In this document: positions 3,884-3,901 of the stretch, piece after piece | Numbering within the stretch: position 1 is the stretch's first letter | Layout: the number at the start of each line of letters is the position of its first letter | Assembly (NCBI RefSeq): GCF_003334315.1 | Contig: NZ_QOWR01000074.1 | Direction: 5' to 3' (one strand) | From: Escherichia coli | Lineage (GTDB): Bacteria; Pseudomonadota; Gammaproteobacteria; Enterobacterales; Enterobacteriaceae | DNA length: 16,712 bases | Position numbers and translations under genes: made by a program | The notes under the pieces: generated by a model | Database searches by the model: none | What the model was told of the DNA's origin: nothing | Seen by the model: only the letters and a program-made list of their open reading frames with translations

Positions 3884-3901
3884 ATCAGGAAAGTTCCTGA
3901 T
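3884..3901. promoter_or_regulatory. Perfect 18-bp palindrome atcaggaa-ag-ttcctgat in the sprT-endA intergenic region (candidate operator)
   Basis: 8-bp arms with a 2-bp spacer, exact reverse complement. It lies 12 bp downstream of the sprT stop and about 65 bp upstream of the endA start. Confidence 0.3.

Follow-up and report, generated by a model that had tools for sequence, protein, structure and literature searches.

The 94-nt spacer between sprT (yggI) and endA of Escherichia coli contains an inverted repeat which, to judge from its conservation, forms the outer edge of a conserved block upstream of the endA promoter. With moderate confidence, this edge can be regarded as a site at which a protein contacts the DNA, the protein being either a regulator or the alpha subunit of RNA polymerase. 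In the stretch of DNA analysed (16,712 nt; hereafter the window), galP, sprT, endA and rsmE are all encoded by the minus strand. The sprT gene spans positions 4410 to 3913, with its TAA stop at 3915-3913, and endA spans 3818 to 3111, with its ATG at 3818-3816, the same ATG at which the RefSeq CDS starts. The repeat (the dyad) starts 11 nt past the sprT stop and ends 65 nt ahead of the endA ATG, in agreement with the original prediction, which had placed it in the short spacer upstream of endA. EndA is the main periplasmic DNase of E. coli; it limits DNA uptake, and its gene is deleted in most cloning strains.

The plus strand reads ATCAGGAAAGTTCCTGAT at positions 3884-3901 and the gene (minus) strand ATCAGGAACTTTCCTGAT, that is, ATCAGGAA-AG-TTCCTGAT and ATCAGGAA-CT-TTCCTGAT, respectively. 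The sequence and its 8-nt arms (3884-3891 and 3894-3901), which are 100% complementary and separated by a 2-nt gap, were as first described. The designation as a perfect 18-bp palindrome held for the arms and failed at the centre: since the central AG is not self-complementary, 16 of the 18 positions are symmetric and the element is, strictly, an 8-2-8 inverted repeat. In the K-12 genome (NC_000913.3) the dyad lies at 3090264-3090281; over 241 nt, the window matches strain FDAARGOS_536 at 100% and K-12 at 97.5% identity.

The symmetry by itself is not significant. Nine inverted repeats with perfect arms of ≥8 nt and spacers of 0-10 nt were found in the window, while 2.6 ± 1.5 were expected from first-order Markov (dinucleotide-frequency-matched) random sequences; with spacers of ≤4 nt there were two, against 1.4 expected. 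With ∼2.6 such repeats expected per window, the dyad rises above chance because it is conserved. Several of the other eight repeats look like GC-rich hairpins, and two were examined. One, on the minus strand at 4478-4453, is a hairpin (GGCTTCCT-N10-AGGAAGCC) that follows the galP stop and has no U-tract; in this galP-sprT region (4410-4486, minus strand) it is followed by TTGCAG-N17-TATCCT and then by the sprT ATG. The supplement of Kim et al. 2012 places a transcription start exactly at the yggI start codon (5′ UTR length 0), and the sprT mRNA therefore appears to be leaderless and to have its own promoter. The second, at 3053-3076 (minus strand), is a GC-rich repeat with 8-bp arms (CCCCACGC-N8-GCGTGGGG) located between the endA stop (3111) and the rsmE ATG (near 3031), ∼20 nt before the rsmE start, with a U-run only after 11 nt. 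It could be a terminator or attenuator of endA, or a 5′ structure of rsmE.

Conservation of the element and its linkage to endA

To follow the element through the family, 80 endA loci from different species were fetched and their upstream regions aligned, which rendered 77 distinct sequences, or 79 in a second alignment. Conservation of each block was expressed as weighted information content, in bits, over these 77-79 distinct Enterobacteriaceae sequences. The last codons of sprT scored 0.54 bits and the 11-nt gap between the stop and the dyad (3912-3902, minus strand) 0.61 bits. The dyad itself scored 1.35 bits in its left arm, 0.78 bits at its centre and 1.57 bits in its right arm, so that the conservation across Enterobacteriaceae sprT-endA spacers that the original prediction had proposed to look for was indeed found in both arms. 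Continuing along the minus strand, the linker CTGGCTGA (CTGACTGA in most genera; 3876-3883), which joins the dyad to the -35 element, scored 1.53 bits and makes, together with the right arm of the dyad, a CTGAT-N4-CTGAT arrangement. It is followed by the predicted -35 hexamer TTGCAT (3870-3875; 1.90 bits), a 17-nt promoter spacer (3869-3853; 0.95 bits), the predicted -10 hexamer TACGTT (3847-3852; 1.83 bits), a GC-rich discriminator, GCTGGC (3846-3841; 1.67 bits; GCGGGC in most genera), and the endA Shine-Dalgarno sequence GGAGT (3824-3828; 1.93 bits). Conservation sets in at the outer boundary of the left arm and is higher in the two arms than between them. It extends past the right arm, running unbroken from the dyad into the -35 region, and adjoins the parts of the spacer that vary least (CTGATTGCAT, TACGTT and the discriminator).

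The dyad region could not be aligned outside the Enterobacteriaceae. In the Yersinia, Serratia and Hafnia loci inspected (L087, L088 and L091), the Enterobacteriaceae dyad is absent upstream of the endA -35; other A/T-rich inverted repeats, built on GTTAAC or GTTAA (e.g. TTGTTAACAA in Hafnia), occupy roughly the same upstream region at a variable distance from the -35. These repeats hint at lineage-specific upstream sites.

Within E. coli the dyad is nearly invariant. The 50 nt around it are present in 5,425 of 5,426 complete genomes; 3,544 of these 5,425 are identical over the 50 nt and the remainder differ at one or two positions. Among six divergent E. coli strains, the 94-nt spacer showed two variable columns, both outside the dyad, and the final 88 nt of sprT ∼8. 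Strain GN05064 carries an uncompensated G-to-A change in the left arm. In two members of a divergent Escherichia lineage (L009, deposited as E. coli SCPM-O-B-8794, and L010), the dyad reads ATCAGGTATTTTACTGAT. Each arm carries one substitution; in the register of E. coli the two do not face each other, but shifting the register restores GTA/TAC complementarity and gives 7 bp with a bulged G. The commercial cloning strain E. coli HST04 (NZ_CP013952.1) matches only the sprT part of the query, up to about window position 3905; its endA deletion appears to start just ahead of the dyad and to remove it.

Comparison of rearranged loci indicates that the element belongs to endA and not to the 3′ end of sprT, since it stays with endA when insertions separate the two genes. 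In two Citrobacter species, 1.1 kb of inserted DNA carrying an opposite-strand DapA-like gene lies between sprT and endA, and two further loci (L034 and L081) have 58-129 nt of extra DNA there. All these insertions are upstream of the element, which keeps its normal distance to the endA promoter. In Cronobacter the linker sequence differs, and the distance from GGAA to TTGC is still 22 nt. The Citrobacter insert gene (L012, 388-1263, and L014) specifies 291 amino acids and looks, by eye, like a DapA/dihydrodipicolinate synthase; the dyad beside endA in these two loci is degenerate (TTCTGGAACTTATATGAT). In an uncultured Klebsiella metagenome assembly (L056, ∼1396-1450), an 11-bp insert, ATGCCATCTTT, parts the arms by one helical turn; as this is a single metagenome-assembled genome, the insert may be an assembly artefact.

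The original prediction had also proposed to search for other copies of the motif, many of which would have pointed to chance symmetry. A single locus, and no regulon, was found in the sequence searched for exact or near-exact copies. No second copy occurs in the window even with three mismatches, and across 320 kb of related loci the orthologous site is the sole match with ≤3 mismatches. The 50-nt query matched one place per genome in the 5,425 E. coli genomes (median 1, maximum 2). An exact-pattern scan of metagenome contigs rendered at least 80 loci. Among those listed, 12 are the sprT-endA region of Escherichia and relatives and the other 68 come from unrelated organisms with varied G+C contents and contexts; no second enterobacterial locus is among these listed exact matches, which bars only an abundant second copy. 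A literature search with the dyad sequence returned no papers.

The predicted endA promoter and candidate binding factors

TTGCAT (3875-3870), N17 and TACGTT (3852-3847) are predicted to make up a sigma-70 promoter for endA, with a start near position 3840. The same arrangement, TTGCnn-N17-TACnnT followed by a GC-rich hexamer, occurs 57-64 nt upstream of the endA ATG in Salmonella, Cronobacter, Yersinia, Serratia, Dickeya, Pantoea and Hafnia, with the exception that Pantoea has TTCCGC in the -35 place; the core promoter, discriminator included, is conserved in at least eight Enterobacterales genera. It matches 6 of 12 consensus positions, which is too weak for a consensus promoter scan, and such a scan made no call at the site. 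The published Cappable-seq, Rend-seq, ROSE, sigma-factor network and Shigella TSS tables contain no usable endA entry, and Kim 2012 lists a start only at yggI (leaderless) and none for endA. With the start taken from the predicted promoter, the dyad would extend from about -61 to -44, centred at -52.5. It lies 8 bp upstream of the predicted -35, a position compatible with promoter control. The GC-rich discriminator suggests that endA may be under growth-rate or stringent control, which would fit the raised endA expression seen in rpoS mutants.

S. flexneri is, for practical purposes, E. coli. Transcriptomes of S. flexneri showed endA to be induced anaerobically (log2 +1.42) and, under anaerobic conditions, to be ∼10-fold lower in an fnr deletion mutant (log2 -3.26 and -2.74) (PMC4229854). 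Expression of endA was increased 2.4-fold in a cpxR deletion mutant (PMC2731931) and 9-fold in an rpoS mutant of strain EDL933 (PMC2907692). A regulatory input at the endA promoter is consistent with these effects of FNR, CpxR and RpoS on endA transcription. No CpxR box was seen in the endA upstream region, and the paper on FNR ChIP in E. coli does not name endA in its main text. No description of the endA promoter or of its regulators was found in the searchable literature.

In the mechanism that we favour, the dyad would be the distal part of the endA promoter region and would act as double-stranded DNA. Transcription of the gene would depend on a weak sigma-70 promoter (TTGCAT and TACGTT 17 bp apart, followed by a GC-rich discriminator), and the block at 3901-3876 (about -61 to -36) would provide a protein-contact surface tuning that promoter. 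The likeliest ligand would be a sequence-specific regulator, bound as a dimer to the two ATCAGGAA half-sites at about -52 and touching RNA polymerase; a less specific option is that the C-terminal domain of the RNA polymerase alpha subunit may contact the A/T-rich GGAAnTTTy in the manner of an UP element. The sequence of the dyad, where it lies, how it is conserved and its linkage to endA are shown by the analysis; we infer the start site, the binding of a protein, which protein binds and in which direction it regulates.

The dyad shows what would be expected of an operator, namely two conserved inverted half-sites with a weaker centre and a promoter-compatible position relative to the predicted start. 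The idea that it is the site of a dimeric protein, put forward in the original prediction, stood in part: the selection acting on it at the DNA level, the position upstream of endA and the two conserved arms speak for it, while a perfect dyad in only 15 of 79 sequences and the uncompensated departures from it speak against it. Imperfect dyads neither prove nor exclude a dimer, because natural operators are often imperfect. The original prediction had not recognised the dyad as a known operator, and it is not known to fit any operator consensus. Compared by eye, none of the consensus sequences of CpxR (GTAAA-N5-GTAAA), the PhoB box, CRP, the LacI family, the FadR/GntR family, IclR/AllR and Lrp fits in both sequence and spacing; in the cases of IclR and Lrp the half-site spacing is off by 1-3 bp. 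Also by eye, GGA-N4-TCC resembles the RcsB core and TATCAGGAACTTT an IHF site; these resemblances break in 40-50% of genera (AACTGG or TTTTCT variants).

FNR boxes have the sequence TTGAT-N4-ATCAA and are typically centred at -41.5 or near -61.5. The centre of the dyad matches this consensus at 2 of 10 positions. The best FNR-like 14-mer of the region is CTGATCTGGCTGAT (3888-3875), which matches at 6 of 10 positions, is centred at -41.5 of the predicted start and has, in its second half, a G where FNR needs a critical C; 2.3% of all 14-mers in the window score as well. By inspection, the UP element consensus NNAAAWWTWTTTTNNNAAANNN (-59 to -38) is matched at 6 of 14 positions in E. coli and at 8 of 14 in Klebsiella-type sequences, ∼4.25 being expected by chance. 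The distal UP subsite is matched, by eye, at 8 of 11 positions by the Klebsiella-type GGAAATTTTCT and at 6 of 11 by the E. coli sequence, so that the likeness of the AAnTTTy tract (∼-55 to -49) to this subsite is no more than moderate. A sigma-54 promoter was considered and rejected: CTGGCTGATTGCA resembles TGGCAC-N5-TTGCA, but the distance between its GG and GC falls 4 bp short. The sigma-54 site published nearby is a different sequence, inside endA; its exact motif, CTGGCAAGCGCGTTGCA, is present at window positions 3126-3142 (plus strand, antisense to the 3′ end of endA) and corresponds to the ChIP-seq site IA23, reported to be intragenic and antisense within endA (Bonocora et al. 2015, PMC4591121).

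DNA versus RNA, and alternative explanations

Among the 79 distinct Enterobacteriaceae spacers, all eight pairs of the dyad are kept in 15, seven in 30 and six or fewer in 34. Perfect dyads occur in E. coli, some Citrobacter species and some members of the Enterobacter/Lelliottia group; in the other genera the dyad is degenerate and retains 5-7 of its 8 pairs. Pairing is lost at pair 4 (mostly T-T/U-U) in 26 of the 79 sequences and at pair 5 in 15, and pair 6 is G-T in 34. Overall, 86.5% of the cells are paired, against 85.6% in shuffles, so that pairing is no better than column composition predicts, and no compensatory change was found in the 79 sequences beyond one pair (three cells) altered on both sides. 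The RNA of the gene strand can form a hairpin with a 7-bp stem, three G-C pairs and a 4-nt loop (-8.3 kcal/mol, z = -3.4). The corresponding energy is -9.4 kcal/mol in Salmonella and -3.1 kcal/mol in K. pneumoniae; Raoultella has no such hairpin. The tail that follows the stem, CUGGCUGA, contains no U-tract. An intrinsic (Rho-independent) terminator was rejected on this ground and because a terminator scan made no call at the dyad, which bears out the original prediction on this point. No relevant match in the dyad was found in an Rfam search (E ≤ 10), the sole match listed, IRES_EBNA at 3700-3743, lying outside the dyad and amounting to noise (9.6 bits against a gathering threshold of 100; E = 3.6). 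The features of a structured RNA element are lacking: there is no Rfam family, no covariation, and neither Klebsiella nor Raoultella keeps the hairpin. That the dyad is a terminator, or a hairpin conserved in RNA, is unlikely, since perfect dyads are found in 15 of 79 sequences, changes are uncompensated, and there is no U-tract, Rfam match or second copy. In these sequences conservation runs column by column and not as a structure, and a function at the DNA level is favoured.

The explanations that compete with a protein-contact site differ in how much of this evidence they accommodate. The symmetry might be incidental, the block working through non-dimeric contacts and the perfect palindrome of E. 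coli being a by-product. This has a smaller, though still substantial, chance of being right. It could take the form of an UP-like A/T tract (GGAAnTTTy, -57 to -49) contacted by the C-terminal domain of the RNA polymerase alpha subunit, or of a degenerate FNR-type site of class II, CTGAT-CTGG-CTGAT, at -41.5, with the CTGAT of the right arm as its upstream half. The block continues unbroken into the -35 region, the left arm is less conserved than the right arm and the linker, and the perfect dyad is confined to 15 of 79 sequences, all of which count in favour of an incidental symmetry; however, the left arm is clearly conserved and the conservation ends at its outer edge, as fits a bipartite site. 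The UP version draws on the 8/11 match of GGAAATTTTCT to the distal subsite, judged by eye, but the proximal subsite is absent. The FNR version draws on the position of CTGATCTGGCTGAT, exactly at the predicted -41.5, and on the FNR dependence of endA, reported only from S. flexneri transcriptomes (PMC4229854); against it stand the 6/10 match with the critical C missing and the silence on endA in the main text of the FNR ChIP paper. A role in RNA, as a hairpin in the sprT 3′ UTR or in a sprT-endA read-through transcript, where it might protect the 3′ end of the sprT mRNA, be a processing site or weakly attenuate read-through into endA, appears improbable. The -8.3 kcal/mol hairpin (z = -3.4) does lie on the gene strand 11 nt past the sprT stop, Salmonella retains one of -9.4 kcal/mol, and the frequent C-to-T change at 3889 yields a G-U pair in 34 of 79 sequences, which an RNA, though not a DNA dyad, would tolerate. 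Yet there is no U-tract, terminator call, Rfam match or covariation, the middle pair is U-U in 26 of 79, Klebsiella (-3.1) and Raoultella have a weak hairpin or none, and the element follows endA and not the sprT stop, even past an opposite-strand gene. No 3′ end near 30902xx-30903xx appears in the part of an E. coli 3′-end-mapping supplement that was covered, a file that may be incomplete, and the published Term-seq and 3′-end tables contain no usable endA entry.

In sigma-E (RpoE) promoters, AAC is the best-conserved part of the -35 logo. That the GGAACTTT of the dyad is the -35 of such a promoter is attractive because EndA is periplasmic, and GGAACTTT (3897-3890) does match the first 8 of the 9 positions of the published -35 motif, GGAACTTTT (PMC1312014). 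A second candidate, tGAACTa-N16-TCTGg (3907-3880), has a TGAACTT-N16-TCTGA counterpart in several Enterobacter species. Nevertheless, no -10 of the TCAAA/TCTGA type lies 15-17 nt downstream of GGAACTT, the sequence at that position being TGCAT, and the diagnostic C of GGAAC is conserved in no more than 51%, so that membership among sigma-E promoters was rejected in spite of the -35 match. For the second candidate, conservation of the -35 C is 44%. Furthermore, endA is absent from the main text of the regulon paper (PMC1312014) and from the sigma-E-induced genes of PMC2731931, which lists it in the cpxR deletion table alone. Among the explanations weighed here, we give this one the least credence. 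Scarcely more credible is the absence of any function, i.e. a chance palindrome that seems conserved through the slow evolution of the whole short spacer. The ∼2.6 repeats expected per window, the lack of covariation and the lack of another copy would agree with it, but in the same genomes the stop-side gap (3912-3902) and the promoter spacer (3869-3853) score 0.6-0.95 bits against 1.35-1.57 bits for the arms, and the element is retained beside endA after rearrangements.

Significance and comparison with known systems

A protein-contact site upstream of the endA promoter thus remains the preferred reading, and the dyad is probably a cis-element of an ordinary kind, undescribed in the searchable literature. 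A more specific proposal, that some as yet unassigned regulator of the Enterobacteriaceae uses it as an operator or that it is part of an atypical FNR-dependent activator complex, is unlikely on present evidence. If true, this operator or FNR reading would make the amount of EndA, a periplasmic DNase, respond to anaerobiosis or to the state of the envelope through its expression, and would offer a handle on how enteric bacteria control the degradation of incoming or extracellular DNA. The analysis provides a phylogenetic footprint of the endA promoter and narrows a candidate regulatory site to 18 bp; the footprint makes the reported effects of FNR, CpxR and RpoS on endA directly testable.

The REP/BIME repeated palindromes are, like the dyad, intergenic inverted repeats of E. 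coli, but the dyad is single-copy, and membership of this class was rejected since the element occurs at one place per genome. With intrinsic terminators and the stabilising stem-loops of 3′ UTRs it shares the capacity to form a hairpin (-8.3 kcal/mol), 11 nt past a stop codon; it differs from them in having no U-tract and only three G-C pairs, in that its structure is not conserved, and in being tied to the downstream gene. Going by what is established for the family, it resembles UP elements of the rrnB P1 type (-59 to -38) in its predicted range of positions and in its AAnTTTy tract at ∼-55 to -49, and the weak hexamers and GC-rich discriminator of the predicted promoter are also found at UP-element promoters; in contrast, its G/C flanks (GG, CTGATC) are conserved and the A-rich proximal subsite is absent. 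The class I-type upstream sites of the CRP/FNR family are similar in being dyads whose half-sites are more conserved than their centres, placed just upstream of the -35 of a weak promoter, and the FNR-dependent expression of endA in Shigella is a further point in common (PMC4229854). The 8-2-8 geometry and the half-site ATCAGGAA, however, fit neither FNR (2/10) nor CRP, and the ATCAG and CTGAT pentamers of the dyad are inversely oriented with respect to FNR half-sites.
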